From Gemmatimonadota bacterium (lineage in GTDB: Bacteria > Gemmatimonadota > Gemmatimonadetes > Palauibacterales > Palauibacteraceae): a stretch of DNA of 23,409 nt. Location: contig JBDHAC010000063.1 in the NCBI GenBank assembly GCA_039588275.1, positions 1-23,409 on the forward strand, given 5' to 3'. The position numbers were made by a program, and so were the translations under genes. Shown one piece after another: positions 6,967-23,134 of this stretch (its first letter is position 1; every line of letters starts with the position of its first letter). Under the pieces are notes generated by a model. That model was not told the origin of the DNA and ran no database searches. It saw only the letters and a list, made by a program, of their open reading frames with translations.

Positions 6967-7150
6967 GCCCCGGGTCCGACATCGCGCAGTAAACCGCAAT
7001 AATCGGTGGCGCCCTGCGGTGCTCGACGCGTTCGACAGCGAGCGTGCCGAGGACGTTTCACCTCCGTCCCCGCTGCCGGATGTACGCTGAATGCCGCGTC
7101 ATCGCAGCAGAATCCCCGAACGATCCATCTTGCCGGACACGGCGAAGTCG

Positions 7151-7166
7151 TGGCTCGGGATATGCT
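7151..7166 (+). promoter_or_regulatory. Candidate sigma54 -24/-12 promoter upstream of the GGDEF-EAL gene
   Basis: TGGCTCGGGATATGCT versus consensus TGGCACGNNNNTTGCW: two mismatches with exact GG-N10-GC spacing, in an intergenic position. Confidence 0.5.
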
Positions 7167-7247
7167 TTCTGGAGGTGCCTAGGCTCTGGACTGTCCGGCC
7201 GCGGACAGAGACGCGGCGCGAGACGGCAGACATCAGCGGGAGGCTGT

Positions 7248-9050
7248 TTGCCCTCGACATCAGTATGGCTCACAAGTCTCAGCGTCGCGTTTCCGGTGCT
7301 GGTCGTGCTCGCGTGGTTCCGCCGCCGGCTCGTGCTCGCCGGATATGAATCGTTGTTCGCCGAGCACACGGACGCTGTAGCGACCCTCGACCGTAAAGGA
7401 CGAATCCGGCGCATCAACCGTGCGTTCACGAGCCTCACGGGTCTGGACGAGTCTCGAGTGCGCCGGATCGCGTTCTCCGATGCCGTCCGGGAAGAGGATC
7501 GAGCACAGGCGATGTCCGCCTTGCGCGCTGCGCGTCGCGGTGAGCCCCGCACGGTCGAGGCAGGCCTGCGCGATGAAGAGGGCGAGCGAGTGGACGTGGA
7601 GCTCACCTCTGTCCCGATCGTGGTGTTGGGGCGGGTGGTGGGGACTCACCAGATCGCGCGCGACATACGCGACCGCAAAGAGGCGGACCGAAAGCTCCAC
7701 GCGAGAGCCCTGCACGATCCCCTGACCGGTTTGTCGAATCGCACGCTCTTCCAGGACCGGCTCCGCCACGCGTTGGACCGCGGCCGCCGAACCGGGCAGA
7801 TGGTTGGGCTTCTCTACATGGATCTGGACCATTTCAAGAACGTGAACGACACGGCCGGTCACGAAGCGGGGGATCTCCTGCTCAAGACTGTCGCGTCGCG
7901 GCTCGAGAGCGTCCTTCGGGAGGGAGACACGGTGGCGCGGCTGGGTGGGGACGAGTTCGCCATCCTGCTGGAAGACATGGAGGGCGAGGAGGAGGCGGTC
8001 GTTGCGGCCAGGCGCGTGGCCGATCTGTTGAGCAAGCCCGTGCGCCTCGAGAGCGGTGACTGGAATGCCGGCGGGAGCGTGGGCGTGGCGATCAGCTCCA
8101 CCCTCACCGAGTCACCCGAGGAGTTGGTACGGCGGGCGGATCTCGCCATGTACGAGGCGAAACGGAGGGGCGGATGCCGCTACCAGCCGTACACTCCGGC
8201 TCTCGACGACCAGCAGCGTGACGTGAACCTGCACCTGGAGAGCGATCTGCGCCACGCGATTCAGGAGAATGGGCTGAATGTCCACTATCAGGCGATCGTG
8301 GACCTCGCGGGAACCCGTATCGTGGGAGTCGAAGCGCTGGTCCGCTGGCAACACCAGAGACTCGGCTCCCTGACACCTTCGATCTTCCTCCCGATCGCCG
8401 AGCGCTCGAACCTGATCGGCGCCCTCGACCGATGGGTCCTGAGGCGCGCCTGCCGTGACGTCAAGACACTGCTCGAGGATTCGGCGTCGATCGCCCCCGA
8501 TTTCTTCCTCAGCGTGAACTGCTCGAAGCGTGGTCTCGCGGAAGCTGACTCGGCGGCGACGATCATCGACATCCTCGAGGCGGAGGCGTTCGACCCTCGG
8601 CGGCTCCAGGTAGAGCTCACGGAGAGTGTCGGAGGCGGGAGCCTGGAAACGCTGGAGCGACTGAGGGCGGCAGGAATCAAGCTAGCGATCGACGACTTCG
8701 GGACCGGCTACTCCTCGCTCGGCTATCTGGGGCGACTGCAGGTCGACGTGCTGAAGATCGATCGTTCCCTGATTCGCGCGCTCGGGGCTGACACCACCTC
8801 GGGCGCTATCGTCCGCACCATCCTCACGCTCGCTCAGGTTATCGGGCTCGGCGTGATCGTAGAAGGAGTCGAGAACGTTGGGCAGCTGAGGCAGCTCCAG
8901 GAGCTGGGCGGGCGATACGTGCAGGGCTTCTACTTCGGTCAGCCGACCGACTTCGAAACGATCGCCAACCTGATACGTCGCGGCCTGCCACCGGATTGGG
9001 CCTTCCGCGGTGCGAGCCCCTCCCGTCAGGTCGCCGCTACGTCGGGATAG
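7248..9050 (+). CDS. TM-PAS-GGDEF-EAL diguanylate cyclase/phosphodiesterase
   Basis: N-terminal hydrophobic helix and PAS/PAC (INRAF...ARDI). GGDEF domain has HDPLTGLSNR, DLDHFKNVND, I-site REGD five residues before GGDEF. EAL domain has EALVRW, SVN, ELTE, DDFGTGYSS, KID, EGVE, QG. Start placed at TTG 7248 after GGGAGG; the ORF-track start at 7044 looks over-extended. Confidence 0.93.
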   Translation: MPSTSVWLTSLSVAFPVLVVLAWFRRRLVLAGYESLFAEHTDAVATLDRKGRIRRINRAFTSLTGLDESRVRRIAFSDAVREEDRAQAMSALRAARRGEPRTVEAGLRDEEGERVDVELTSVPIVVLGRVVGTHQIARDIRDRKEADRKLHARALHDPLTGLSNRTLFQDRLRHALDRGRRTGQMVGLLYMDLDHFKNVNDTAGHEAGDLLLKTVASRLESVLREGDTVARLGGDEFAILLEDMEGEEEAVVAARRVADLLSKPVRLESGDWNAGGSVGVAISSTLTESPEELVRRADLAMYEAKRRGGCRYQPYTPALDDQQRDVNLHLESDLRHAIQENGLNVHYQAIVDLAGTRIVGVEALVRWQHQRLGSLTPSIFLPIAERSNLIGALDRWVLRRACRDVKTLLEDSASIAPDFFLSVNCSKRGLAEADSAATIIDILEAEAFDPRRLQVELTESVGGGSLETLERLRAAGIKLAIDDFGTGYSSLGYLGRLQVDVLKIDRSLIRALGADTTSGAIVRTILTLAQVIGLGVIVEGVENVGQLRQLQELGGRYVQGFYFGQPTDFETIANLIRRGLPPDWAFRGASPSRQVAATSG

Positions 9051-10144
9051 GCCTCCCCGAGCGGATAGTCGCTGCCGGCCAACTCGGCGGCGGACCAGCC
9101 CAGGATCCGTCGGCGGACCTCGTCGGGCACGTCCTTGTGGCGGTCGGCCGTCCCCTTCACGAACAGCTCCGCGTCCGTCGCCAGGATGTGCGGCGGGTGC
9201 ATCTCGAACGCTTCCTTGTGCCGTTGCATGTACTGGAAGCCGCACTTGTGGACGACGTTATCGAGCTCCTCGTCGGTGAGCGCCCGCATCCCCAGGAAGC
9301 TCGTCACCTGGCGCACGATATCGGGCAGATCGCGCTTCATGTCCTCGAAGTGGACGAACAGCACGTTGTCGTTGGCCTGCGAGAGCTCCCACCAGCCCAC
9401 AACGTGCGCCGGCCAGGTGCCCCACCACATCAGCCCATCCGAGCAGAACCACTCCTCGATCACGCCGAGATCGGGTGCGAGCGCGCCCACGTTGGTGGCG
9501 ATGAAGTCGGCGCAGCTCGCGAAGCACGAGACGGGGTGACGGGCGACGTACACGTAACGCGCCTCGGGGCTGAACGGACACAGGGACGCGGGGAAGTGCG
9601 TCTTGATCACGCGGGACGGCCGCTCGGCTCCGAGGAGCGGCGCCTCGTCGATCGGGACGCTCTTGAGCGCCTCCAGCCACGGCGATACGGCGTACAGCGC
9701 GGTGCCGCTATCGACCAGATCCCCGGCTCCGCGGTGGAGGATCTCGTACACCACATGCTGCATCCAGGTCGTCCCGCACTTCATTTGCGTCACGACGAAG
9801 ACGTCTTTCTGTCGGGCCTCGTATTCATCTCCACGCTGGAAGCTCTCGAGGCTGCACGTCCCTTTGGGACCCGAGATGCCGCGGTGCTGAAAGCTGGCCT
9901 TTTGAAACGTGAAGCTCGAGAACCTGCCCGTCAGACGGAGAATCGGGTACAGGAGCCGCGCATGGCGCCGCAGGGCCCGCTTGAAGGCGGCTCGCCCCTC
10001 CGGGGGGAGACCGTAGTACTCGAGGTCACGGGTCTTCTGGTCCTCCCACGAGAGAATGACGCCCAGGTAGATCATCTGCGCGAGGAGGAAGAGGACGAGC
10101 ACGCCCGCGAGCACCGCGACCCACGTCAGTGCGCTCAAGCCCAT
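9026..10144 (-). CDS. PAPS-dependent sulfotransferase (Sulfotransfer_1-like) with N-terminal membrane anchor
   Basis: 5'-PSB loop DVFVVTQMKCGTTW, catalytic KTH, 3'-PB YVARHPVSCFAS, and LFVHFEDMKRD. The first ~30 aa are hydrophobic. It overlaps the convergent GGDEF-EAL gene by 25 bp. Confidence 0.9.
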   Translation of the reverse strand: MGLSALTWVAVLAGVLVLFLLAQMIYLGVILSWEDQKTRDLEYYGLPPEGRAAFKRALRRHARLLYPILRLTGRFSSFTFQKASFQHRGISGPKGTCSLESFQRGDEYEARQKDVFVVTQMKCGTTWMQHVVYEILHRGAGDLVDSGTALYAVSPWLEALKSVPIDEAPLLGAERPSRVIKTHFPASLCPFSPEARYVYVARHPVSCFASCADFIATNVGALAPDLGVIEEWFCSDGLMWWGTWPAHVVGWWELSQANDNVLFVHFEDMKRDLPDIVRQVTSFLGMRALTDEELDNVVHKCGFQYMQRHKEAFEMHPPHILATDAELFVKGTADRHKDVPDEVRRRILGWSAAELAGSDYPLGEAYPDVAAT

Positions 10145-11944: not shown

Positions 11945-12051
11945 GAGCCGACCTCCTCGGGATTCGGGGTAGATCGGGGAAGCTAGGCGAGTCGGCGCGA
12001 GCGCTACAGGGCCGGCAGGTGAGAGTCATAGCGGGCGCTCACCCTCGTGAG

Positions 12052-12125
12052 TGCGCCCGGGAGGACTCGAACCCCCAGCCTTCGGATCCGAAGTCCGACG
12101 CTCTATCCAGTTGAGCTACGGGCGC
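12052..12125 (-). tRNA. tRNA-Arg (anticodon UCG), CCA not encoded
   Basis: Reverse complement is GCGCCCG TA GCTCAACTGGATAGAGC G TCGGA CTTCGGA TCCGA AGGCT GGGGG TTCGAGT CCTCC CGGGCGC A. It forms a full cloverleaf with the A20 Arg identity element, anticodon TCG and G37. Confidence 0.95.
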
Positions 12126-12185
12126 GGGATGGCGAAGAACGGTAGACCGCCCACGAGAGGTTCGCAACCGGCCCACGGGGCAGAT

Positions 12186-12201
12186 CGGCCCCCGTCTTGC
12201 G
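12186..12201 (+). promoter_or_regulatory. Weak candidate sigma54 -24/-12 promoter upstream of the pseudopilin/HD-GYP unit
   Basis: CGGCCCCCGTCTTGCG has GG-N10-GC with TTGC and resembles the site at 18833-18848. Confidence 0.3.
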
Positions 12202-12346
12202 AAACCTTCCCGTTCCTGGGGCTCCGGCCTTCCGGGTTGCTAGAACCGGGAGCCAGTTTGACCCATCCCGCAGGTGAGAGACAGCCCGGGAGCGGTTTCT
12301 TCCTGGCTCAGCCGGGGCCGGCCTGGTCGACAGTGAGGGACGAGGC

Positions 12347-12847
12347 GTGGGCGTACGAAGACCGGCAGCAACGAGCTGCGCGCATTCGAGCGACGGGCGC
12401 CGTAAATCCAACGGGTTTACGGTGTTGGAGCTGGTCTCCGTCCTGGTGATCATCGCCATCGGGACGATGATGGCGCTCAAGGTATCCGAACGGGCCTCCG
12501 ACTCCGCACAAATCAAGCAGGCGATCGCGGAAATCCTCCAGCTTCAGACCCGCATCGACGAGTTCTCCATGACGTGGGACCGCCTACCCAACTCTCTCGG
12601 CGAGCTGGGTGGGGGCGTTCCGCAAGATCCGTGGGGAAACGCCTACGAGTACTTCCCGTTTCTGGATGGGGTAAATATGTCGATGGCCAGGAGAGATCGA
12701 TTCCTGGTCCCAATCAACACCCTGTATGACCTATGCAGCAGGGGGCGCGACGGCCTCACCACCAACAATCTCACATCGCCCGACGCCCAGGACGACGTCA
12801 TTCGAGCGAACGACGGCGCCTATATAGGGCTGGCCGTCGGTTACTGA
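12347..12847 (+). CDS. GspG-like prepilin-type (class III signal) pseudopilin
   Basis: Basic leader, then G|FTVLE plus hydrophobic helix. GspG-type LPNSLGEL...DPWGNAYEY and YDLCSRGRDG...DDV motifs. The GTG start is uncertain. Confidence 0.88.
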   Translation: MGVRRPAATSCAHSSDGRRKSNGFTVLELVSVLVIIAIGTMMALKVSERASDSAQIKQAIAEILQLQTRIDEFSMTWDRLPNSLGELGGGVPQDPWGNAYEYFPFLDGVNMSMARRDRFLVPINTLYDLCSRGRDGLTTNNLTSPDAQDDVIRANDGAYIGLAVGY

Positions 12848-12859
12848 TCTAGGCGAAAC

Positions 12860-14986
12860 GTGCGATTAGAGGGAACGTTCTTCCGATCTCGCCTCGGTCG
12901 CCGAATCCTGGGCCTGTTCGTCCTCTGCGCGCTCATCCCGACTGGCGCCGCGCTCACATTCATGTACGTACAGGCCGATCGGCGGCTGGCCGACGAGCGC
13001 AGGGAGCGCGTCCGGGAACAAAGCAAGCTGGGCGCGGAACAGGTGCTCCAGAGGATACGGATCATCGAGCGAGAGTTCGCCCGCACGATCCACCGAATCG
13101 AAACCACGGAACCGGAAGAGTGGACCACGGTCGCGGACTCGTCGACCGCTCAGTTAGTCGGACTCGCCGCAGAGGCCGGGTTGGGGGACATCGTGACGAT
13201 CTTCGGCGATCCACCGAGCCCTCCACCGCTGACCGAGCTGGTTCGCGAACGTCTCTCGGAGGGACGGAGCGCGTTGGCCACCGTCCCGGAGCCAAACGGA
13301 CGATCGCGAGTGATTCTCGTTCACCAGGCACAGCTCGAGGACGGTCCGATCCTCATGTGGGGAGAGCTGGACAGGGAGCGGCTCGCCGCCGAGACAGCCT
13401 CGTTCTCGGCAGCCATCGATCTGTGCATGGTGGATCACCGGAAGGTCCCGATCTTCTGTGACATCGATGTACCGAAGGACCTCCTGCCCAACGTCGGTGA
13501 TCAACGTAGCACCGCCCAGGATGCCTACCTCGAATGGCAGGACGGCGAGATCACGCGGATAGGCGCATACGCGCTGGTCTTCGTGTCATACGACTACGCG
13601 GCGCCTCCCTGGATGATCATGGCGGGGGAACGCACGAGGTCCGTGCTCTCGGAGCTGTCCGAGTTCCGGATCACGCTCGTGCTCGCGGGGGCCATGGGGC
13701 TGGTACTCGTCGTCCTCCTTGGGAGTGTCCAGATCAGGCGTAGCCTTGAGCCGTTGCACCGGCTCAAGGAAGGCACCAACCGCGTGGCGGAGGGGAACTT
13801 CGCGGCCCGAGTCGAGATCACCTCGGGGGACGAATTCACCGATTTGGCCGACTCGTTCAACGAGATGACGCGACAGCTGGATCAGCAGTTCGAGACCTTG
13901 CGCACGCTGCGGGCCATCGACCAGGCGGTGCTGGAAACCCCGAGCTTCGACGAGATCGCGTCGGCGTCGCTCTCGCAGGCGACACAGCTCACGGCGTGCG
14001 ATATCGCTTGCCTCATCGTCAAGGAGGATCCGGAGAGATCGGACGGTGCTCTGGGCTTCGTCTACCTCGCAGGGGAAGAGCCTCGCAGGATCGACGATCT
14101 CGAGCTCGGGAAGCACGATGACGAGATCTTGCAGAGTCAAGGGCTGGCTCTGGTGACCTCTGACGCGTCGCTGCCTTGCCTCGGCATTGACCCTATCGCC
14201 GGTCGCTCGGAGGAGTTCCTCGTCGTCGGGATCCGGGAGCACGGCAATCTCCACGGCGTGCTCGCCCTCGGCTTCCCACCCGAGTCGGGCCAGTGGGAGA
14301 ACGTCGTTAGCGAGGCTCTGCAACTCGCGGATCAGCTCGCCGTCGCGCTCGCCAATGTGCGTCTCGTGGGCACCCTGGACGATCTGAGTGGTGGGGCCCT
14401 GCAGGCGCTGGCACGGACGGTGGACGCCAAGTCTGCCTGGACGGCGGGTCACTCCGAGCGTGTCACCCGTCTCGCCCAGGCACTCGCTTCCGAGCTGGGG
14501 TTGTCTGCCGCGGACCAGGACCGCCTCTACCGCGGCGGTCTGCTGCACGACATCGGGAAGCTGGGAGTGAGCGAGGAGACCTTGGACTGGCCAGGGAAGC
14601 TCAGCGATGAGCAGTGGGAGGAGATCAGGCGACACCCCGGCATCGGGGTCGAGATCCTGGAGCCGATCCCGGTGTTCCACGACATCCTCCCCATCGTCCA
14701 CTACCACCACGAGCGGTGGGACGGGGCGGGTTATCCGGCGGGGCTCGCCGGGGAGGCCATCCCGTTACTGGCCCGCGTGGTCGCCGTGGCGGACGTGTAC
14801 GACGCGCTCACCTCCGATCGACCCTACCGCGCCGGGATGCCCCGGGAAAAGGCCATTCAGATCATCGAAGAGGGATCGGGCACGCAGTTCGATGCCGCGA
14901 TCGTGCCGGTACTGCGCCGAGCTCTGGGAAGACTGGAAGAGGCAAGACAGGAAGAGCCGGTGCAACTGATTGCCGTCGGCGAGTGA
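12860..14986 (+). CDS. Membrane HD-GYP phosphodiesterase 1 (TM - extracytoplasmic sensor - TM - HAMP - GAF - HD-GYP)
   Basis: Two TM helices flank a ~235-aa region. HAMP (PLHRL...GDEF.DLA.SFN.M), GAF-like segment ending LADQLAVALANVRL, and HD-GYP motifs GHSERV, LHDIGK, HHERWDGAGYP, ADVYDAL, RPYR, QFD. Confidence 0.93.
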   Translation: MRLEGTFFRSRLGRRILGLFVLCALIPTGAALTFMYVQADRRLADERRERVREQSKLGAEQVLQRIRIIEREFARTIHRIETTEPEEWTTVADSSTAQLVGLAAEAGLGDIVTIFGDPPSPPPLTELVRERLSEGRSALATVPEPNGRSRVILVHQAQLEDGPILMWGELDRERLAAETASFSAAIDLCMVDHRKVPIFCDIDVPKDLLPNVGDQRSTAQDAYLEWQDGEITRIGAYALVFVSYDYAAPPWMIMAGERTRSVLSELSEFRITLVLAGAMGLVLVVLLGSVQIRRSLEPLHRLKEGTNRVAEGNFAARVEITSGDEFTDLADSFNEMTRQLDQQFETLRTLRAIDQAVLETPSFDEIASASLSQATQLTACDIACLIVKEDPERSDGALGFVYLAGEEPRRIDDLELGKHDDEILQSQGLALVTSDASLPCLGIDPIAGRSEEFLVVGIREHGNLHGVLALGFPPESGQWENVVSEALQLADQLAVALANVRLVGTLDDLSGGALQALARTVDAKSAWTAGHSERVTRLAQALASELGLSAADQDRLYRGGLLHDIGKLGVSEETLDWPGKLSDEQWEEIRRHPGIGVEILEPIPVFHDILPIVHYHHERWDGAGYPAGLAGEAIPLLARVVAVADVYDALTSDRPYRAGMPREKAIQIIEEGSGTQFDAAIVPVLRRALGRLEEARQEEPVQLIAVGE

Positions 14987-14996
14987 GGATACGGAG

Positions 14997-15458
14997 ATGA
15001 GTACGAAGCGACGATCCAAGCGGAACCACGAGGGGGCGCGAGCGACGCAGCGATCTACGAAACGGACGCCAGCGACCCGGGCCGCGATGGTGGTTTGCGC
15101 AGCGCTCTTCGCGCTGGCGGCGGTGCTCCTCCTGAGAGGGTCTCGATCGGAGGAGCTTCCCCCCGAGCTGCTCGGTCATTGGACGACCACCAACTCGCGG
15201 TACGAGGGACGCGCGTTCACGCTCACCGAGGCGACCCTGGAGATCCATACCAGCCCCTCCAGTTCGACGGTGCATCAGGTTCACAAAGTGGAGAGGGACG
15301 AGAGCGAAGGCCTGGTTTATACGATCCGCTACGAGGACGGTGGCACCCTTGTGCCGTTCGCGATCGCATACGGGGCCCGCGCGCCGAGTGGGGCACCTCA
15401 GTGGGTCCATTTTCCGCGTCAGCCAGAGATCGAATGGCGGAAGACGATCGAGCGATGA
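14997..15458 (+). CDS. Hypothetical single-pass membrane protein with small beta-rich exported domain
   Basis: ATG follows GGAG, 10 bp after the HD-GYP stop. Basic N-terminus, one TM helix, then LPPELLGHW and alternating beta-strand patterns. Confidence 0.65.
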   Translation: MSTKRRSKRNHEGARATQRSTKRTPATRAAMVVCAALFALAAVLLLRGSRSEELPPELLGHWTTTNSRYEGRAFTLTEATLEIHTSPSSSTVHQVHKVERDESEGLVYTIRYEDGGTLVPFAIAYGARAPSGAPQWVHFPRQPEIEWRKTIER

Positions 15459-15731
15459 CCGAACGGACGTGCGGCGGCTTTGCAGAGCGCTAGAAGGTCT
15501 TGCAATTGCCCCCGCAGAAAGTGGCGAGCGCGAGCCACGAACTTTCTTTACTGTCCACTTTGCGGTCATGTAACGCGCTATGTGACATGGGCTTACGTCG
15601 TGGACGCCCCTAGGTGTGCCATGAGCCCTAGGCGTGCTCCAGATACGCGCGCGTCGGTGGGAGGTGGAGTCTCCCACTGTCGAGACCGCCTCGGGGGCGG
15701 AGTCGATCGGATGCGCCAGAGAGTTGCGACG

Positions 15732-16232
15732 ATGTCGTACGAGACACGGACAGGGACGGGCGGATTCACGCTCCACGAGCTGATCATCGCCATCGCGCTA
15801 GTCGTGGCGGCGATGGCCATCGTCGGCCCACCGACCGTGAGAACCATGCATCGATCGACGCTTCGAGCCGCCGCGAACGAAGTCCAATCGATGCACGCCA
15901 CCGCGCGCAGCCTCGCGATGCAGTCGGGACGGCCGGCGGTGTTGGAGTTCCTGCCGGCCCAGGGTCAGTTGCCGAACACCATCTCTTTGCAGGCGGACAC
16001 CTCCGCCAGCGGGTTGACGGAGATCCGGCGCTCTGCCCTCACGCGTGCGGACTTCGTTTCGGACCGCACGATCTTGTGCTTCGATGCGCGCGGACTTCCG
16101 ACGACCAAGACGATCCGGGAGCCAAACGGGAAGATCAAACAGTGCGAAGCGGCCGACGCCACGATCATCGTGCGCACCGGAGCGCTGGCGGACACGCTTC
16201 GCTACTCACCGCTCGGGGAGCTCATCCCATGA
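15732..16232 (+). CDS. FimT/GspH-like minor pilin
   Basis: G|FTLHE plus hydrophobic helix. AANEV..ARSLAM..GR and FDARG motifs are typical of FimT/GspH. Alternative ATG at 15711. Confidence 0.85.
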   Translation: MSYETRTGTGGFTLHELIIAIALVVAAMAIVGPPTVRTMHRSTLRAAANEVQSMHATARSLAMQSGRPAVLEFLPAQGQLPNTISLQADTSASGLTEIRRSALTRADFVSDRTILCFDARGLPTTKTIREPNGKIKQCEAADATIIVRTGALADTLRYSPLGELIP

Positions 16233-16612
16233 AGCGACCTACGCCTCGTTCCCGACCCAAGGTGGGTGATCAGCGAGGAGCCTCGGCGCTCGAGGTCATG
16301 CTCGCGATCGTTCTCCTGTCTACCGCGATCCTGGGTGCGGCGGCGGCACAGGCCGGAAGCTGGCGCGTCCTGGCCGGCGGCCGCCGGGACGTCGGGGCGT
16401 GGGCGGCACTGCACTATCAGGTGGAAGAGCTGATTTCGGGAGGATACGACCGGGCGGTGTCAGGCTCACGGGTCTTGAACGGCTACCCGATCCAATGGGA
16501 TGTCGCCGGGACCGACCCCAAGGTGGTGATGATCGTCGCGCGCTACCCGAACGGCTGGACGATGGGGGCCGACACGGTGCGCGTCGTGCTCAGGCCCCCT
16601 CCGGCCCCATGA
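16229..16612 (+). CDS. PilV-like minor pilin
   Basis: ATGA overlap with the previous gene. QRG|ASALEVMLAIVLL class III signal (Glu5 present, Ala at +1). Short, second in the cluster. Confidence 0.75.
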   Translation: MKRPTPRSRPKVGDQRGASALEVMLAIVLLSTAILGAAAAQAGSWRVLAGGRRDVGAWAALHYQVEELISGGYDRAVSGSRVLNGYPIQWDVAGTDPKVVMIVARYPNGWTMGADTVRVVLRPPPAP

Positions 16613-16628
16613 TGGCGGCCTGAGCTCC

Positions 16629-17471
16629 ATGTCTCACACCGGGGGCGGCATGAGGGGAGCCCAAGCTGGGCGCTCGGCGGGATTCACCCTGTTCGAGGCG
16701 CTCGTGTATCTGGTCTTCGGCGGCATGGTAGTCGCCGCCATCCACTCGGTCGTGTTCAAGAGTCAGCGCGACTTCCACGAACAGCGGGCGCTCGCCGAGG
16801 GGCAGGGCGTGCTGCGAAACGCGATGACGCTGCTCGTCGGCGAGCTCCGATCGCTGTCCGCCACCGGGGGCGACATTCTGCAGACCGACCCGAGCCTCAT
16901 CCGGATGCGCGCGACCCGGGGGGAGAGCGTCATCTGCGGCACCGTCGCGAACCAGACCGACCCGACATATGAAATGGCGCTCGTAGGAGGCACGCATGCG
17001 GCCGAGCCGGCCGATAGCGCGCTGCTCCTCGCGATCAACGGTGCCGGCCGGGACGACGACGCGTGGCAGGTCGTGAAGGTCACGCAGGTGAGCGTGGCCG
17101 GAAACGACGACAACTGCGACTGGGCAGGCGCCGCCGATCCGGAGCTGATCGTGAGCGTGAGAGGTGACACCGCCGGGGTGAAGATCGGCTCGCTGGTTCG
17201 TCCGTTTCGGCAGATCGAGTACGGGTTGTTGGAGTGGAACGGGGAGTGGTGGCTCGGCCGCCGCCTGCGCGGGCAGGCGTGGGAGCCGATGACCGGACCG
17301 TTGCTCGCGCCGGCTGATTCGGGACTCCTGTTTACCTACCTGGCCGAGGACGGCAGCGTCACCGCAACCGCGGCGGATGTCGCCGCGGTCGACATTCTCC
17401 TGAGAGCACGTCGACCCGGCGAGACCGCCCGCGTCGACTCGCTCCGCACCAAGGTTGCGGTGAGGGGGTGA
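16629..17471 (+). CDS. PilW-like minor pilin
   Basis: AG|FTLFEALVYLVFGG signal, LR.AM.LL..ELR helix, one Cys pair, and C-terminal LLFTY...G...VAAVDILL motif. Alternative ATG at 16650. Confidence 0.8.
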   Translation: MSHTGGGMRGAQAGRSAGFTLFEALVYLVFGGMVVAAIHSVVFKSQRDFHEQRALAEGQGVLRNAMTLLVGELRSLSATGGDILQTDPSLIRMRATRGESVICGTVANQTDPTYEMALVGGTHAAEPADSALLLAINGAGRDDDAWQVVKVTQVSVAGNDDNCDWAGAADPELIVSVRGDTAGVKIGSLVRPFRQIEYGLLEWNGEWWLGRRLRGQAWEPMTGPLLAPADSGLLFTYLAEDGSVTATAADVAAVDILLRARRPGETARVDSLRTKVAVRG

Positions 17472-18769
17472 GGATCATGACCGAGCGCCCGGACGTGCAA
17501 CCCCCGCTGAAGCGTCGAAACCATTGGCCGAACGAAGGCGGCTACGTGCTCATCTGGGCCTTGTTCGCGTTCGTCCTGTTGGGCGGGCTCGCCGCGGCCG
17601 CGCTCAAATCGACGGGCTCGGAGCGCCGGCTGGCCAAGGCTTCCTCGGATTGGAACGTCAGCTTCTACGCCGCCGAGGTCGGACTCCAGCAGACGTTCGG
17701 GATCGCGACCGACACGCTGGTCGGGGCTCTCCAGCCCGGTGACTCGATCGATCTGGGGTGGCAGCCGATCGATGGGTCGACGGACTATCGCGCCGTCGTC
17801 TACCGAATCGACAACGGCCCACACATGCTCTATCAGATCCGGAGCACGGGGCGCTACGACAGGCTGTTCGCGGGCCAGACCACGATCACCCAGACCATGA
17901 CCCTGGCGTCGGACAAGCCGGACGGGATCCTGATCGACGACCCGCTCCGCATTGACGGGGCCGCGACCGTGTCCGGCGAATGTCGCATCCACGCACGGAA
18001 TCAGCTGACCGTGCCCGGCCTCCTGTCGACCGATGGCCCGGTGAGCTCGGAGGGACTGGTCGACGGGAACATCGTCCACCCGGACGGCTTACCTCCCGAA
18101 TCCTACGCCGACCCCATCCCTCCAGAGCCCCTGGAGCTCGACGCCTACTGTGCCGCGGCCGACTACCGGATCTCGGACGGGTGGCTGGTGACGACCGCCA
18201 CCGGTGACAGCGCGCAGCTCGGCGCCGCGGGGGCCGCTAACTGGAGCGCGATCGTCAACGACGAAGGGTACCCCGAATACGTGTTTGACGCGGACGAGGG
18301 CACCTGGAATCCGATGGACCCCAACGTGAAGATGAGTGGCAGCTTTTGCGCGGACGAAAGCGTCACGCTGATCGGGAGCCCTGGCCAGCCGGCGAGCCCA
18401 GCTTCCATTTCGCTGTTCACGAGGGGCTTCGTCGAGGTGATCGGTAGTCCATTTGTGGAGGCGGCGCACGGAGACGGGACCCTGTTCGCCACCTACGGGG
18501 ACATCGTGCTCGACGGAGCGATGGACGCCTTCACGCCGAACTACAGAGGCCACGTGCGCGCGCGTAGCGAATGTAATGCCAACAACGCACTGTGGATCGA
18601 CGGATCGATCGCTTGCGGCGGGACGACCTACCAGGATCCGCCCGGGGTGCGAACGATCGCGATCGATAACATCATCGTCGGCGACCTGAAGCTCACCACC
18701 ACCTGTAACATCAACAGTATCGTCGCACCTCGTCCGATCACGCTCCGCTCCTGGCGACACGACTTCTGA
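17468..18769 (+). CDS. PilX-like minor pilin with extended C-terminal beta-rich domain
   Basis: GTGA overlap. EGG|YVLIWAL signal lacks Glu5, as in PilX/GspK. SFYAAEVGL and YQIRSTGR motifs, ending LRSWRHDF. Confidence 0.82.
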   Translation: MRIMTERPDVQPPLKRRNHWPNEGGYVLIWALFAFVLLGGLAAAALKSTGSERRLAKASSDWNVSFYAAEVGLQQTFGIATDTLVGALQPGDSIDLGWQPIDGSTDYRAVVYRIDNGPHMLYQIRSTGRYDRLFAGQTTITQTMTLASDKPDGILIDDPLRIDGAATVSGECRIHARNQLTVPGLLSTDGPVSSEGLVDGNIVHPDGLPPESYADPIPPEPLELDAYCAAADYRISDGWLVTTATGDSAQLGAAGAANWSAIVNDEGYPEYVFDADEGTWNPMDPNVKMSGSFCADESVTLIGSPGQPASPASISLFTRGFVEVIGSPFVEAAHGDGTLFATYGDIVLDGAMDAFTPNYRGHVRARSECNANNALWIDGSIACGGTTYQDPPGVRTIAIDNIIVGDLKLTTTCNINSIVAPRPITLRSWRHDF

Positions 18770-18832
18770 GGTAGCGCTTTCTGACGGACGGGTAGCGCTC
18801 GACATCTCCTTCTTTCGCGGATTCCCCGAGAG

Positions 18833-18848
18833 GGGCACCGCTCTTGCG
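18833..18848 (+). promoter_or_regulatory. Candidate sigma54 -24/-12 promoter upstream of HD-GYP 2
   Basis: GGGCACCGCTCTTGCG equals GGCAC-N5-TTGC with exact spacing, in the intergenic gap. Confidence 0.55.
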
Positions 18849-18957
18849 CTTACCGGCTCGGCTCTGCTCGCACGAAGCGTCCGGGTCCGTGCCCTCGGTC
18901 GCCGGAATCGTCCTGCCGAGCGGGGAAACACACGCTCGCCTGGGGCGGATACAGCGT

Positions 18958-21213
18958 ATGCTGCGGATATCGACAAATCGGGGCGGCCGAACAGCGGGGG
19001 AAAGACGAGCGCGCTCGCGCGTGGCGCGTCGCATGGTTCTCCTGTTTATCGCCTGCGCCCTCGTACCGGTCTCCGCCCTCGCGCTGTTCGCCTACCGTCA
19101 GGTATCCCGACAGCTGGAGGCGCAGGGCCGGGCCAGTCTGCGCGAGGCCGGAAAGCTCGCGGGGATGCCCCTGCTGGAACGGCTGGACTTCCTGAACGAC
19201 AAGCTCCGGGCGATGTCACCGGCATCCACTGGCGATCCGATGAGAACGTTTGCTGTGGAACCCGAGCCCGCCGACTCGCCCGACACTTCGCGAGAACACT
19301 TCCTCTCGGTCGTTCTCCGGGTGCAGGGCGAAAGGGTTTCGACCCTCGCCGGCGACGATCATGTCCTCGATCCGAGCGCGACCTTGACGGTCGTGGCCGA
19401 TGCCCACTTGGCGACCGGGCGCTCGCTGCTGCATGTCCTCCGGGACGGCACCGGCCCCAGGGTCTTCCTGATCCAACGACTCGATCCCACGGATCCCGCG
19501 CGCGGCGAGCTGTGGGCAGAGCTCGAGCCGGAGTACCTGTTCACTGGAGGGTTGGGAAAGGACGGCGTCCCCACGGGCATGGAGCTCTGCCTTCTCGACG
19601 GTGAGGCACACCCGCTCTACTGCCCGAATCCGCCCGGCAGGAAGCAGCTGGACGCGCTGGCCGAGGCGATCGCCTCCCGCTCCGTCGATGCGGTCGGGTG
19701 GGAGGGGGTCAAGGGCGAGTACCTGGCCGGGTTCTGGACCGCGTTCCTCGGCTACTCCTACGGATCGGATGACTGGACGGTGATGTTGAGCGAGCCGCGG
19801 AGCCTCGCGCTCGCACCCGTGGCCGAATTCCGTCAGGTCTTCCTGCTCATCGCGATTCTCGTCGTCGTACTGGCCTTCCTGTTCAGCAATATCCAGATCC
19901 GGCACAACCTGGAACCGCTCGATAGGCTCAAGGCGGGCACCGAGCGAATCGCTCGTCGGGACTTCGGAACACCCGTCGAGGTTCGTAGCGGCGACGAGTT
20001 CGAGATCCTCGCGGGAGCGATCAACGCGATGGGGCGAAGCCTGGCCTCTCAGTTCGCCGCCATGGCCGCCCTGGGCGAGATCGATCGCGCCGTCCTGTCG
20101 GCCCTCCGCACCGAAGCGGTCATCGAGATCGTGCTGGCGCGCGCGAGCGATGTCACGGCGTGCGACGCCGTCGCGGTCGGCATCATCGGGGATGAGAGCG
20201 AGCTCTGCCTGTCGGGATCGGGCACCCATCAGCTGACGTCGGCCGTCGTCGTGCACCGCCCGGATGACACCGAGCTGTCGCCGCTTCGACGAGGAGACGT
20301 GCTTCGCTTCGGACCGGACCTCGAGTGCCCTGCGTATCTGAGCCGCGCGCTGGCGATCGAGGGTCCTCACGCACAGGTGCTGGTATTCCCACTGCGGACT
20401 AGCGAAGCCCTGCTGGGGCTCCTCGCTCTCGGGTACCTTGGCGAAGCGCCCGAAGACGACGATGCGCTGAACCGCGACCGCAAGCTCGCGGATCAGATCA
20501 CGGTGGCGCTGGAAAACGCGGCGCTGGTCGAGCGTCTGGATCGACTGACCGTCGGGACGCTCGACGCGTTAGCTCGCACCGTCGACTCCAAGTCTCCGTG
20601 GACGGCGGGTCATTCGAAACGCGTGGCAGAACTGGCCGTCCGGCTCGGACAGGTCGTCGAACTGCCCGAGCCCCACCTCGAGGTGCTCTACCGAGGCGCT
20701 CTGCTCCACGACATCGGTAAGATCGGCGTTCCGGCCGCCATACTGAACAAACCGGCGCGGCTCACCGACGACGAGATGGAGAGGATCCGCGAGCATCCGG
20801 AGATCGGTTTCCGCATTCTCTCCCCGATCGAGAGCCTCGCGGACATCCTCCCGATCGTCCGAAACCATCACGAGCGATACGCCGGCGGCGGATACCCGGA
20901 TGGCACACCCGCGCGCGAGCTGTCGGACCTGGTACGGCTCGTCACCGTCGTGGATACGTACGACACACTCGTGAACGACCGACCCTACAGAGACGGCCTG
21001 GAGCCCGAGGGTGCACTCCAACTGCTCGTAGAGGGGAGCGGGTCGCAGTTCGATCCGGAGTTCGTGGCCGCGCTCGTGACCCTCGTCCGAGATCACGGCG
21101 ATGGGCAGGGTGCGTGCGCCGCCGGAGCGAGTCCGGAGACGGCGAGCGCGCAGGCTGAAGTCGCCGAAGGCACGTCGGTTGAGACGTCGCCCCTGAAGGA
21201 TGCCGTCGCCTGA
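18958..21213 (+). CDS. Membrane HD-GYP phosphodiesterase 2 (paralog; TM - sensor - TM - HAMP - GAF - HD-GYP)
   Basis: Same architecture as 12860-14986 (RSRVARRMVLLFIACALVP, EPLDRLKAGT, SGDEF, IDRAVL), with GHSKRV, LHDIGK, HHERYAGGGYP, DTYD, RPYR. Start placed at ATG 18958 by alignment to the paralog. Confidence 0.92.
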   Translation: MLRISTNRGGRTAGERRARSRVARRMVLLFIACALVPVSALALFAYRQVSRQLEAQGRASLREAGKLAGMPLLERLDFLNDKLRAMSPASTGDPMRTFAVEPEPADSPDTSREHFLSVVLRVQGERVSTLAGDDHVLDPSATLTVVADAHLATGRSLLHVLRDGTGPRVFLIQRLDPTDPARGELWAELEPEYLFTGGLGKDGVPTGMELCLLDGEAHPLYCPNPPGRKQLDALAEAIASRSVDAVGWEGVKGEYLAGFWTAFLGYSYGSDDWTVMLSEPRSLALAPVAEFRQVFLLIAILVVVLAFLFSNIQIRHNLEPLDRLKAGTERIARRDFGTPVEVRSGDEFEILAGAINAMGRSLASQFAAMAALGEIDRAVLSALRTEAVIEIVLARASDVTACDAVAVGIIGDESELCLSGSGTHQLTSAVVVHRPDDTELSPLRRGDVLRFGPDLECPAYLSRALAIEGPHAQVLVFPLRTSEALLGLLALGYLGEAPEDDDALNRDRKLADQITVALENAALVERLDRLTVGTLDALARTVDSKSPWTAGHSKRVAELAVRLGQVVELPEPHLEVLYRGALLHDIGKIGVPAAILNKPARLTDDEMERIREHPEIGFRILSPIESLADILPIVRNHHERYAGGGYPDGTPARELSDLVRLVTVVDTYDTLVNDRPYRDGLEPEGALQLLVEGSGSQFDPEFVAALVTLVRDHGDGQGACAAGASPETASAQAEVAEGTSVETSPLKDAVA

Positions 21214-21409
21214 TCAGCCCTCATCGGGTTTCGTCCCTCCATAACCTCCCCTACGCCGAAACCTCACCGCCCGACCCCTCGTCATGATGCCAGCCGCGAG
21301 CCTCGGCCCCGGTGGCGACACGAGAGAGAGTGCATTGGCGGATGAACGCTGCCTCTGGGTGCGAGGTCCGCTCGCGGCGATCTACCGAGATTCCTTATGG
21401 GAGACGTCT

Positions 21410-23134
21410 ATGAAGCCGAGCGCGTTGAAACAGATCGCCCACCTTGGACGCGCGGCGTTGATCGCCGCCCTCGTCTTGGCCGGGATTCCCGTCAGCGCTC
21501 TCGGTCAAACCCTGAACGCTGAGGCTTACCTGGAGGTGAAGGAGCGAGCCGAGGCCGCCTATCGCGAAGGCCGCTACGGTGAGGCGGCCGAGGCGTTCCG
21601 TACGCTCCTCGATCACAACCCGGGCGATGGAGACCTGTGGATTCGGCTCGGACGTGCACACGAGCGCGCTGAAGAACGGCAGCAAGCGATCGAGGCTTTC
21701 CAACGCGCACGGGCCCTCGGCTACGCGACGGGCTACACGATCGATGTCTGGATCGCCGCATTGTACGCGGATATGGATGACCAGGAGGGCGCCTACGAGT
21801 GGTTGGAGCGCGCGCTCGCCGACGGGCTCGAGGGCCGCAATCGGATCAGCCAGCACCGCGCCTTCAAGCGCTACGAGGACGACGACCGGTACCGTCGCCT
21901 CGCGGGTCTTCTGCCGCAGCGCGAGTTCACGCGGGACGAGGGATGGCGGTACGACCTCGATTACCTCGTCGAGGAGATCCGCCGCCTGCACGCCGCCTTC
22001 GAGCGTCCCGCGTTCTCACCCGAGTTCGAAACGGCGATGGCCGACATCCATGAGCGCATCCCGCGCTTGACCGATGATCAGATCGCGAACGAGCTCAAGC
22101 GGCTGGTTGTGAGGCTGGGGGATGGCCACAGCGCCATCTGGTCCGTGCCAACGGACGATGTGAGCTTCGCGGGGCTGCCGATCGACGTGTATCTGTTCAG
22201 CGATGGACCTTTCATCGTCGGAGCCGGGGGCGCGGACGCCCAGGAGCTGATCGGGAGTCGCCTGCTTCAGGTCGGCGGCCGCCCAGTCGAGGAGCTGATC
22301 CCCGGCGTCGAGCCCTACCTCGCGGTCGACAACCCGATGGGCGTGCGCTCGGGGACGGCCGCTCTGATCACGCGGCTCGATCTGCTCGAGGCGTTGGGGG
22401 CGACGCGCGAGGGGGATGCCATGTCCGTGACCGTGGCCGGCCCCACCGATGGTACCCGGACCGCGACGCTCACAGCCGGACCGCCACGTCGTACGTGGCG
22501 CTTGATGGGACCGCCGGCCGACGCTTCTGCCCCCACACCGCTCTACCTCAGCAACCCGACCAAGAACATCTGGCTGGAGGAGCTCCCCGACCACCAGGCG
22601 CTTTACGTCCAGTACAACTCGGTCTCGAACGAGCGCGGGAACACGGTCGCCGACTTCGCCGACACTTTGCTCGCGGCGGCTGAGCGCACCGGGTCGTCCA
22701 CCGTGATTGTCGACGTCCGCCGCAACGGCGGCGGCAACAACTTCCTCAACTGGCCGCTGGTTCGGGCACTGATCCGGTTCGAGCACGAGGAGCCGGACCG
22801 CCGGATCTTCGTGCTCGCCGGGCGCCATACGTTCTCGGCGGCGCAGAACTTCGTGAACTGGGTCGAGCGGCTGACCGACGCCGTCTTCGTGGGCGAGCCG
22901 ACGGGCTCGCGCCCCAACTTCACCGGGGAGACCACCCCGGTGACGCTTCCGTACAGCGGTCTCCAGGGGAGCATCTCGTCGCGCTACTGGCAGGATTCGC
23001 ACGCGAACGACGACCGCATATGGATCGCGCCCGACATCCCGGTCGGGCTCTCGTCGGAGGACTACTTCTCCAACCGAGATCCCGTCCTCGAGGCGGTCCT
23101 GCGCTTGATAGAAAGCGGGCGAACCATCTCCTGA
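21410..23134 (+). CDS. Secreted TPR-domain + S41 (tail-specific protease)-like peptidase
   Basis: GGGAG precedes ATG 21410. Signal peptide, then TPR-like helices (Y.EAAEAF...NP.D...W..LG.A). LGDGH, degenerate PDZ-like segment, VDVRRNGGG, TFSAA (candidate catalytic Ser) and VGEPTG. Confidence 0.85.
   Translation: MKPSALKQIAHLGRAALIAALVLAGIPVSALGQTLNAEAYLEVKERAEAAYREGRYGEAAEAFRTLLDHNPGDGDLWIRLGRAHERAEERQQAIEAFQRARALGYATGYTIDVWIAALYADMDDQEGAYEWLERALADGLEGRNRISQHRAFKRYEDDDRYRRLAGLLPQREFTRDEGWRYDLDYLVEEIRRLHAAFERPAFSPEFETAMADIHERIPRLTDDQIANELKRLVVRLGDGHSAIWSVPTDDVSFAGLPIDVYLFSDGPFIVGAGGADAQELIGSRLLQVGGRPVEELIPGVEPYLAVDNPMGVRSGTAALITRLDLLEALGATREGDAMSVTVAGPTDGTRTATLTAGPPRRTWRLMGPPADASAPTPLYLSNPTKNIWLEELPDHQALYVQYNSVSNERGNTVADFADTLLAAAERTGSSTVIVDVRRNGGGNNFLNWPLVRALIRFEHEEPDRRIFVLAGRHTFSAAQNFVNWVERLTDAVFVGEPTGSRPNFTGETTPVTLPYSGLQGSISSRYWQDSHANDDRIWIAPDIPVGLSSEDYFSNRDPVLEAVLRLIESGRTIS

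Follow-up and report, generated by a model that had tools for sequence, protein, structure and literature searches.

In the 23,409-nucleotide contig of a Gemmatimonadota bacterium analysed here (the window; contig C63 of a 4.1 Mb genome that is 85.8% complete), a gene for a pilin-like protein (P) is followed by genes for a membrane receptor (R1) and a small membrane protein (S), and the conserved unit is P, receptor (R) and S, which is smaller than the eight-gene layout in which it lies. Eight co-oriented open reading frames (ORFs) on the plus strand at 12347-21213 code for P, R1, S, fimT-, pilV-, pilW- and pilX-like proteins and a second receptor, R2, and the order of these genes in a first-pass annotation is confirmed by the ORFs and by family matches at that place. 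P-R1-S is read as a three-gene sensory module in which P would bind the dCache sensor of R1 and thereby set the hydrolysis of cyclic di-GMP (c-di-GMP) predicted for its HD-GYP domain. That P is a dedicated membrane partner setting the activity of dCache receptors, probably reporting the state of the pili, is considered somewhat probable from gene linkage and residue conservation. We infer direct signalling from pilin to receptor; that P reports pilus state is likely, and is the least supported step. The features of the three genes, including transmembrane (TM) segments, are as follows.

12347-12847, plus strand: P, GspG-derived pilin-like protein of 166 amino acids (aa), with N_methyl and T2SSG matches and a class III signal
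after 12415, plus strand: cleavage site of P between G and F, E5 kept (sequence motif)
12689-12718, plus strand: family loop of P, RRDRFLVPIN (family alignment)
within 12347-12847, plus strand: C-terminal extension of P, RANDGxYIGLA (family alignment)
12860-14986, plus strand: R1 (HD-GYP1), 708 aa, with TM1, dCache-fold sensor, TM2, HAMP, GAF-like and HD-GYP parts in this order
14997-15458, plus strand: S, single-TM protein of 153 aa, third conserved member of the module, matching no known family

The intergenic gaps are 12, 10, 273, −4, 16, −4 and 188 bp in gene order. They split the eight genes into three blocks: P-R1-S (12 and 10 bp), the fimT-pilV-pilW-pilX set, which starts 273 bp further on, and R2, which is another 188 bp away. 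All of this layout is retained in the closest named relative, a Gemmatimonadota metagenome-assembled genome (L001), with 92% identity in P and 79% DNA identity over 10.4 kb.

Linkage of pilin and receptor across phyla

Relatives of P comprised 79 close proteins, 880 representatives at E < 1e-30 and 462 genome stretches, and the best 80 of the latter (from GTDB, 13 named phyla plus unassigned genomes) were taken as the genome loci. With the window proteins alone as queries the sensor region was found next to P at nearly all 80 loci, and with profiles the receptor sensor was found within 610 bp of P at 78/80 and S at 55/80, the commonest orders being P-R-S (33 loci) and P-R (22 loci). A metagenome set of 74 loci, left after dropping 6/80 with less than 250 bp downstream and not used for the receptor and S profiles, had a receptor beside P at 68. 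Both sets were ranked by likeness to the query, and whole genomes were therefore also sampled in both directions, each sample containing its own centre genome and related genomes not being independent. Among 201 Acidobacteriota genomes the same 12 carry P and receptor, which are adjacent at 13/13 receptor places and 13/15 P places. In the 221 Desulfobacterota genomes (the phylum of G301) P occurs in 15 and the receptor in 14, with adjacency at 13/16 P places and 13/15 receptor places, one pair having its receptor cut by a contig end. Gammaproteobacteria have the receptor at 5/6 P loci (351 genomes), and in Gemmatimonadota (301 genomes) P was found in 40 and the receptor in 54, with 30/47 P places paired. 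Adjacency of genes found in 2-18% of genomes does not arise by chance at such a frequency.

Other prepilins were found at 10/80 P flanks and pilus machinery at 2/80, both of the pilMQ type. The linkage of these receptors to prepilin genes, as asked of the first-pass reading, is thus conserved in the genome loci, the metagenome loci and the reciprocal genome samples. From that reading, a pilin-HD-GYP module, the bond of receptor and pilin is retained, while the bond concerns a single pilin family, P, and holds whatever the output. As the linkage persisted irrespective of output domain, the locus is not specifically one of cyclic-dinucleotide signalling. The receptors at the 80 loci end in HD-GYP (52), kinase or hybrid kinase (15), GGDEF-EAL (2) or class III cyclase (2), with 10 cut or unassigned. 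At least 13 output changes were counted on a sensor tree of 111 rows, which excludes the metagenome loci and L201-L224 (mean 33 with shuffled labels). Such interchangeable outputs behind the same sensor tie P to the input module and not to HD-GYP. The occurrence of P beside one sensor family in many phyla suggests that it is likely a dedicated sensor partner rather than an ordinary pilus subunit.

The pilin-like protein P

P matched N_methyl and TIGR02532 over cut-off, has the class III signal with cleavage between G and F, E5 and a hydrophobic helix, and belongs by sequence to the type IV pilin superfamily; a PilD-type peptidase is encoded in the same genome. G-1 is present in 194/215 P sequences and E5 in 95% (P alignment A1). 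The family consensus is RKDRFLVPINSxYDLYSMGxDGxxxxPLTAxxSxDDIIRANDGxYIGLA. The GspG family TIGR01710 was not reached, P scoring 32.3 bits and the best of four proteins tried 65.8 bits relative to a cut-off of 88.85. Ten module pilins were aligned with five true GspG from module-bearing genomes (5 parsed of 10 fetched). Compared with GspG, P lacks the alpha-beta loop of about 23 aa and gains an insert of about 17 aa ending in RKDRFLVP[IL]N as well as the C-terminal extension, and the acidic residues aligned with the C-terminal loop of GspG, which binds Ca, are invariant in P. The predicted fold of P had its best matches in the GspG heads 3g20, 5o2y and 4lw9, with a probability of 0.98-0.99 but a weak E of about 0.03-0.05. 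Canonical GspG is absent from 29/46 module genomes, including the present one at its 85.8% completeness, and the other 17 have a separate GspG. P is thus a family of its own, derived from GspG and distinct from the major pseudopilin GspG of the type II secretion system (T2SS), although databases name its members 'general secretion pathway protein G'.

In some P the RKDRFLVP loop is immediately preceded by a long Gly/Ser-rich insert (L119:9506-10108, P0033, P0114 and P0147), so this site tolerates bulky additions. Two divergent Desulfobacterota P genes (L239:4947-5396 and L240:658-1113) have unrelated proteins downstream in place of R and S, that of L240 being Cys-rich and zinc-ribbon-like.

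The receptors R1 and R2

18958-21213, plus strand: R2 (HD-GYP2), second receptor of the same family, 751 aa from the ATG at 18958

The two membrane HD-GYP receptors were rightly annotated as paralogs. They share 35% identity over 686 aa (24% in the sensor part), and each has two TM helices with HAMP and HD_5 over the Pfam cut-off and GAF_2 under it. An AlphaFold2 model of the R1 sensor (pLDDT 90.6) has a long helix and two tandem PAS-like modules between the TM helices, with McpB, Tlp3, Mlp24, PctA and KinD as top Foldseek matches (E down to 4e-8). Pfam dCache_1 sees 1/60 members of the sensor family (E 0.0014), and by its model the R1 sensor is a dCache fold of a family outside Pfam dCache_1. 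The motif YxxxxRxWY of the dCache_1AA amino-acid sensors was found in 0/60 members. The distal Cache module, the usual place of ligand binding, is the least conserved part of the sensor (0.33).

In the enzyme domain of R1 the metal residues H531, H563-D564, H592, H616-H617-E618 and D645 are present with GYP, WPG stands where the KPG motif is expected, and an Asp lies at the position expected of the third-metal acidic residue, as judged by position only. R2 has the same metal set but A instead of D/N in the HHE motif. All four HD-GYP patterns were matched by 44/52 HD-GYP relatives, several misses being cut ORFs. Both R1 and R2 have RPYR, and R or K ends the RxY[K/R] motif in 49/52 relatives, the other 3 being cut. 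This motif is tied to c-di-GMP specificity, as opposed to RxxQ/N for cyclic GMP-AMP (cGAMP), in the available text of Galperin and Chou (bioRxiv 10.1101/2021.11.05.467447), and the HD-GYP domain of R1 is predicted to hydrolyse c-di-GMP.

The genome holds one P, one S and two receptors of the family only. R2 keeps the proximal-Cache residues typical of P-linked receptors and is probably a separately transcribed paralog sharing the one P. On the sensor tree R2 is not the sister of R1, and a recent tandem duplication giving rise to the two was rejected, the tree being a quick one with many open forks and flagged long branches. Two family receptors around one P also occur at L042, L136 and L138, those of L042 being one HD-GYP and one kinase receptor in divergent orientation.

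Proposed contact between P and the receptor

PilD would cleave P, which would then sit in the inner membrane by its N-terminal helix. The RKDRFLVP[IL]N loop of P may contact the membrane-proximal Cache module of R1 (C189, W226, F241), and HAMP would relay the signal to the enzyme. P could be drawn into or released from pili, so that its membrane pool would report pilus extension and retraction; such exchange is proposed because G-1, F1 and E5 are kept and the hosts have motors of type IVa pili (T4aP).

The contact is suggested by losses on both sides. Among the profile-found Gemmatimonadota P, the hydrophobic residue and Pro of the loop are kept in 30/30 P directly upstream of a receptor vs 0/17 others, in which the loop has decayed to FGVQ, FGVA, FGVE, FSVP or FNVP; all these 17 have S directly downstream. 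Conversely, C184, W221 and F236 (profile numbering) of the membrane-proximal Cache module are kept in R1 and R2 but lost in a P-free clade of receptors. These reciprocal losses point to a contact of loop and proximal Cache without proving it. The TM1 motif (R, F, C, P) is equally well conserved in the 17 receptors of the P-free clade; conservation of TM1 is thus not pilin-specific, which argues against a TM1 contact like that of PleC. Inter-protein covariation in 150 P-R pairs (of 183; Neff, the effective number of sequences, 132) gave no signal at this depth, the best z being 7.7 vs 6.5-8.1 in shuffled pairings, and the distance correlation of P and R (r 0.48) is expected from shared descent.

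Several observations weigh against P as the dedicated partner of these receptors. The higher conservation of the head motif of P (0.79) than of its assembly helix (0.58) is inflated, since the searches favour the head motif. Only 30/62 receptor places in Gemmatimonadota adjoin P (split hits merged). From the 32 unlinked receptors 20 were fetched, and 17 of these proved to be GGDEF-EAL proteins from a single clade, with neither P nor S nearby; five genomes of this clade, 95-99% complete, lack both. Another five genomes, 95-98% complete, have P and S but none of the family's receptors. Some P with an intact loop have no receptor next to them (L013, L144, L186), and some receptor-linked Desulfobacterota P have diverged loops (L234, L237, L238). 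The loop was lost in about 3-4 lineages only, on a tree built without the motif columns, and an independent-pairs test of loop against receptor loss had 4 pairs and a median p of 0.5 (L204 and L073 dropped, no leader parsed). The coupling of P and R is not obligate, and each part can persist alone.

P-free GGDEF-EAL receptors (L084, L085, L095, L097, L099 and L100) stand in a conserved cluster, each with a sigma54-type site; the cluster genes are, by the look of their translations, presumably for methanofuran/methanopterin-related biosynthesis and a short-chain dehydrogenase.

Regulation and host pilus machinery

18833-18847, plus strand: sigma54-type -24/-12 site upstream of R2, all 15 core letters identical in L001

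A strict sigma54-type site (GGCA-N6-TTGC) was found at most 400 bp upstream of 28/154 P genes heading a module, with 0 on the reverse strand and a mean of 0.8 in mononucleotide shuffles, and before 0/41 P genes with another module or prepilin gene upstream. It also precedes 14/20 stand-alone receptors, and R2. The listed TTG start of R2 at 18844 lies inside this site, which makes the ATG at 18958 the likelier start, and it is probable that R2 has its own promoter and a separate transcript. Before P the window has no more than a loose match to a sigma54-type site (12186-12200), which is not kept in L001 and not claimed, and a scan of 12000-21400 for sigma70 promoters found none.

Of 62 strict sigma54-type sites in the 4.1 Mb genome many lie before non-pilus genes. 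Sites at C27:233, C27:10294, C41:27436, C41:26209, C72:13687, C12:54446 and C50:22073 lie before genes that include pilC, the C27 pilin in pilA position, the C41 pilin, fimT, a pilX-like gene, another HD-GYP gene and a dnaK-like gene, the gene names being read from translations. As judged from these sites the module is tied to sigma54, not specifically to PilR. The genome has 13 sigma54 activators and a broad regulon.

The 13 ORFs of the window scanned include no assembly ATPase, platform protein, secretin or prepilin peptidase, in agreement with the first-pass annotation; PilY1 was not searched for. Genes for all four are encoded elsewhere in the genome: PilB, PilT, PilC, a PilS/PilR-like pair and a pilin on C27, PilM-PilQ on C41 and PilD on C50, with RpoN on C3 and a Tad system on C4, several of these names being read from translations. 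A PilB-like ATPase was found in 45/46 module genomes (33 over cut-off), for which there is no phylum baseline, and entry of P into pili is not thereby shown; this also weighs against the role proposed for P, as do the shared sigma54-type sites, which suit simple co-regulation equally well.

Under such co-regulation P would be a specialised minor pilin of type IV pili (T4P), the target of the signal and not its input, the dCache domain would sense a small molecule, the output would control piliation, and sigma54 would co-express the genes with no contact between the proteins. The sites before P genes, stand-alone receptors and this genome's own pilin, fimT and pilC genes fit this account, as do the presence of RpoN, a PilR-like activator and PilD, the E5 kept in P, the existence of R without P and of P with S without R, and the minor-pilin cassettes that lie near P in at least four arrangements in Gemmatimonadota. 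It does not require, however, that P be kept within about 20 bp of one sensor family while outputs were swapped at least 13 times across phyla, P is nearly never in a pilus gene cluster (2/80), and the sigma54-type sites of the genome also precede many non-pilus genes. A small-molecule sensor also sits poorly with the weak conservation of the distal Cache module and the absence of the amino-acid-binding motif. On this evidence co-regulation without contact is regarded as unlikely.

Protein S and the 2TM-HAMP adaptor

S has a conserved domain of about 95 aa (P..L.G.W.T...Y ... NQ..W) with no match in Pfam, NCBIfam or PDB. A lipobox-like motif was found in 20/112 S, making it a TM-anchored or lipoprotein domain. 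Among the named Atlas clusters those nearest to S are lipocalin-like, at a score of 0.80 that gives no more than a lead. Some modules have a fourth component, a 2TM-HAMP-like protein without output domain, which is a separate neighbour at 13/80 genome and 18/74 metagenome loci and is absent from this genome. In eight predicted fusions (P0114, P0126, P0136, P0137, P0143, P0148, P0170 and P0221) a 2TM-HAMP-coiled-coil stands in frame before the prepilin motif of P; these are known as predicted proteins and not from DNA, and 'HAMP-like' was read by eye, the family matches being weak. The prepilin leader would here be a whole membrane protein, and prepilin peptidase could split the fusion. The fusions, together with the separate adaptor genes, speak for P as a receptor partner. 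It can be entertained tentatively that 'signalling pilins' derived from GspG ride the T4P machinery only to report its state, their FLVP loop docking on a cognate dCache receptor whose output, depending on the phylum, is HD-GYP, GGDEF-EAL, adenylate cyclase or kinase, and that in some lineages they are made as a polyprotein with the 2TM-HAMP adaptor and cut by prepilin peptidase.

S directly downstream of all 17 receptor-less P of the Gemmatimonadota sample would also fit a P outside the pilus pathway, in which a fixed membrane accessory complex of P and S binds an outside ligand or senses the envelope and signals to R in the manner of a periplasmic binding protein. The missing alpha-beta loop of GspG, the 2TM-HAMP fusions, which would tether P if uncleaved, and the anchored, perhaps lipocalin-like S agree with such a complex. 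Against it stands the retention of the cleavage motif and of E5, for which it is difficult to account in the absence of PilD and assembly contacts. S is also lacking at 25/80 loci, some of which are truncated, and T4aP cassettes are repeatedly found in the neighbourhood in Gemmatimonadota. We hold this accessory complex to be slightly less likely still than co-regulation.

At L101-L115 and L225, P and S make up a unit of two genes that has no receptor and in which the loop of P has decayed. S has a longer N-terminal cytoplasmic part there, and in one genus (L103, L107) this unit lies directly after an rpsA-like gene.

The minor-pilin cassette

15521-15538, plus strand: weak hairpin resembling a terminator, between S and fimT (1 found vs 3.2 expected by chance; alone not evidence)
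15732-16232, plus strand: FimT/GspH-like prepilin of the minor-pilin cassette, a lineage-specific neighbour
16229-16612, plus strand: PilV-like prepilin
16629-17471, plus strand: PilW-like prepilin, with 4 paralogs elsewhere in the genome
17468-18769, plus strand: PilX-like protein without E5

The pilV-, pilW- and pilX-like genes had no Pfam or NCBIfam match over cut-off, and their names rest on the N-terminal motif, the gene order and the likeness to paralogous cassettes of the same genome. The four genes had been taken as part of the module, a view that does not hold: a PilW-type cassette flanks 9/32 Gemmatimonadota P loci and 0/48 others, as seen with a PilW profile built from this genome and hence biased toward Gemmatimonadota. 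Around P the cassette may be downstream, upstream, divergent or convergent, and its expected frequency near P by chance is about 2-3% by our own estimate, at 5 cassettes per 4 Mb. The enrichment supports a functional tie of the module to T4aP in Gemmatimonadota and not a fixed eight-gene machine, and the cassette would be an ordinary tip set of T4aP that came to lie beside the module in this phylum.

The whole layout could alternatively be one co-transcribed machine, in which each HD-GYP protein reads the pilins upstream of it (P for R1, FimT-PilVWX for R2). Its full conservation in L001 and the order P-R-fimT-pilV-pilW in G280 speak for this, while among the loci examined R2 follows pilX in the window and L001 only, and the four other PilW-type cassettes of the genome (of five) have no family receptor near them. 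The gaps of 273 and 188 bp, the latter with its own sigma54-type site, and the residues typical of P-linked receptors in R2 stand likewise against it, making a single machine highly improbable. The statement that each HD-GYP gene directly follows a prepilin gene is true of R1, 12 bp behind P, and by position only of R2, which is separated from pilX by 188 bp and that site.

Neighbouring genes

On the left the similarity to L001 ends at a tRNA-Arg(TCG) gene (12051-12125, minus strand), which lies 220 bp upstream of P in divergent orientation and does so in L001 too. A tRNA island as a general feature was rejected, as tRNAs were found at 9/80 loci only and were of mixed types and distances. Further genes of the window are:

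7044-9050, plus strand: PAS-GGDEF-EAL protein, 3.3 kb upstream of the module, with no DNA match to the L001 flank
9026-10144, minus strand: sulfotransferase with an N-terminal TM segment
11327-11944, minus strand: DoxX-like protein with an EF-hand-like tail
21284-23134, plus strand: TPR and S41 peptidase gene, 70 bp past R2, into which the L001 DNA match runs

Comparison with known systems

By what route pili convey surface contact to second messengers is still an open question. All known cases (PilS, PleC and the contested PilJ) rely on the major pilin, in which a structural and a signalling role are difficult to tell apart. A portable cassette of two to four genes with its own pilin and a swappable enzyme would offer a defined pair with nameable residues and a direct readout (c-di-GMP, cyclic AMP (cAMP) or phosphorylation). 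With it come a family of dCache domains not covered by Pfam and, in S, a family of membrane proteins that has no name so far, and, if the proposal is true, a dCache domain with a protein as ligand or co-receptor. No paper describing the P-R-S module was found in full-text literature searches covering few subscription journals. By analogy the module is probably a case of pilin sensing by membrane receptors, which is known in kind.

P is like GspG/PulG/EpsG of the T2SS in its prepilin signal, long N-terminal helix and segments DPWG and YDL.S.G.DG..DD, but is not found in T2SS operons (machinery in 2/80 flanks, both pilMQ-type). The cassette of the window resembles the T4aP minor pilin sets FimU/FimT-PilV-PilW-PilX in gene order, overlapping stops and starts and prepilin motifs; compared with these it is nothing special, and it has no PilE. 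R1 shares its architecture with the dCache_1-GAF-HD-GYP phosphodiesterases (bioRxiv 10.1101/2021.11.05.467447) together with HD, HHE..GYP, the N-terminal acidic residue and RxY[K/R], whereas its sensor lies outside Pfam dCache_1, and the word 'pilin' is absent from the main text of that paper.

The first-pass annotation had named PilS and PilJ of Pseudomonas as precedents of pilin sensing. That of PilJ is contested: in the available text of bioRxiv 10.1101/2022.05.13.491915 the two-hybrid interaction of PilA and PilJ is confirmed but does not track cAMP signalling. In the PilA-PilS/PilR system of Pseudomonas aeruginosa, as described in papers citing it, a membrane signalling protein likewise has the pilin as its ligand, E5 and P22 are important and promoters are of the sigma54 type; PilS differs in having another sensor domain and in reading the major pilin to control pilA. 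The present genome has its own pilS/pilR-like pair on C27, apart from the module.

The closest precedent is PilA-PleC/PleD of Caulobacter crescentus (PMC7196804). According to the available text, PilA binds PleC at TM1, and the model of the periplasmic domain of PleC was based on Mlp37, a domain that is also among the fold matches of the R1 sensor. The receptor, which has two TM helices and a periplasmic part like that of chemoreceptors, senses the membrane pool of pilin and feeds into c-di-GMP. There the major Tad pilin acts by an N-terminal peptide on TM1, and no gene cassette is described in that text. The module reported here differs in having a dedicated GspG-derived paralog with a conserved head loop, which is encoded together with its sensor, in the addition of S, and in its four kinds of output.

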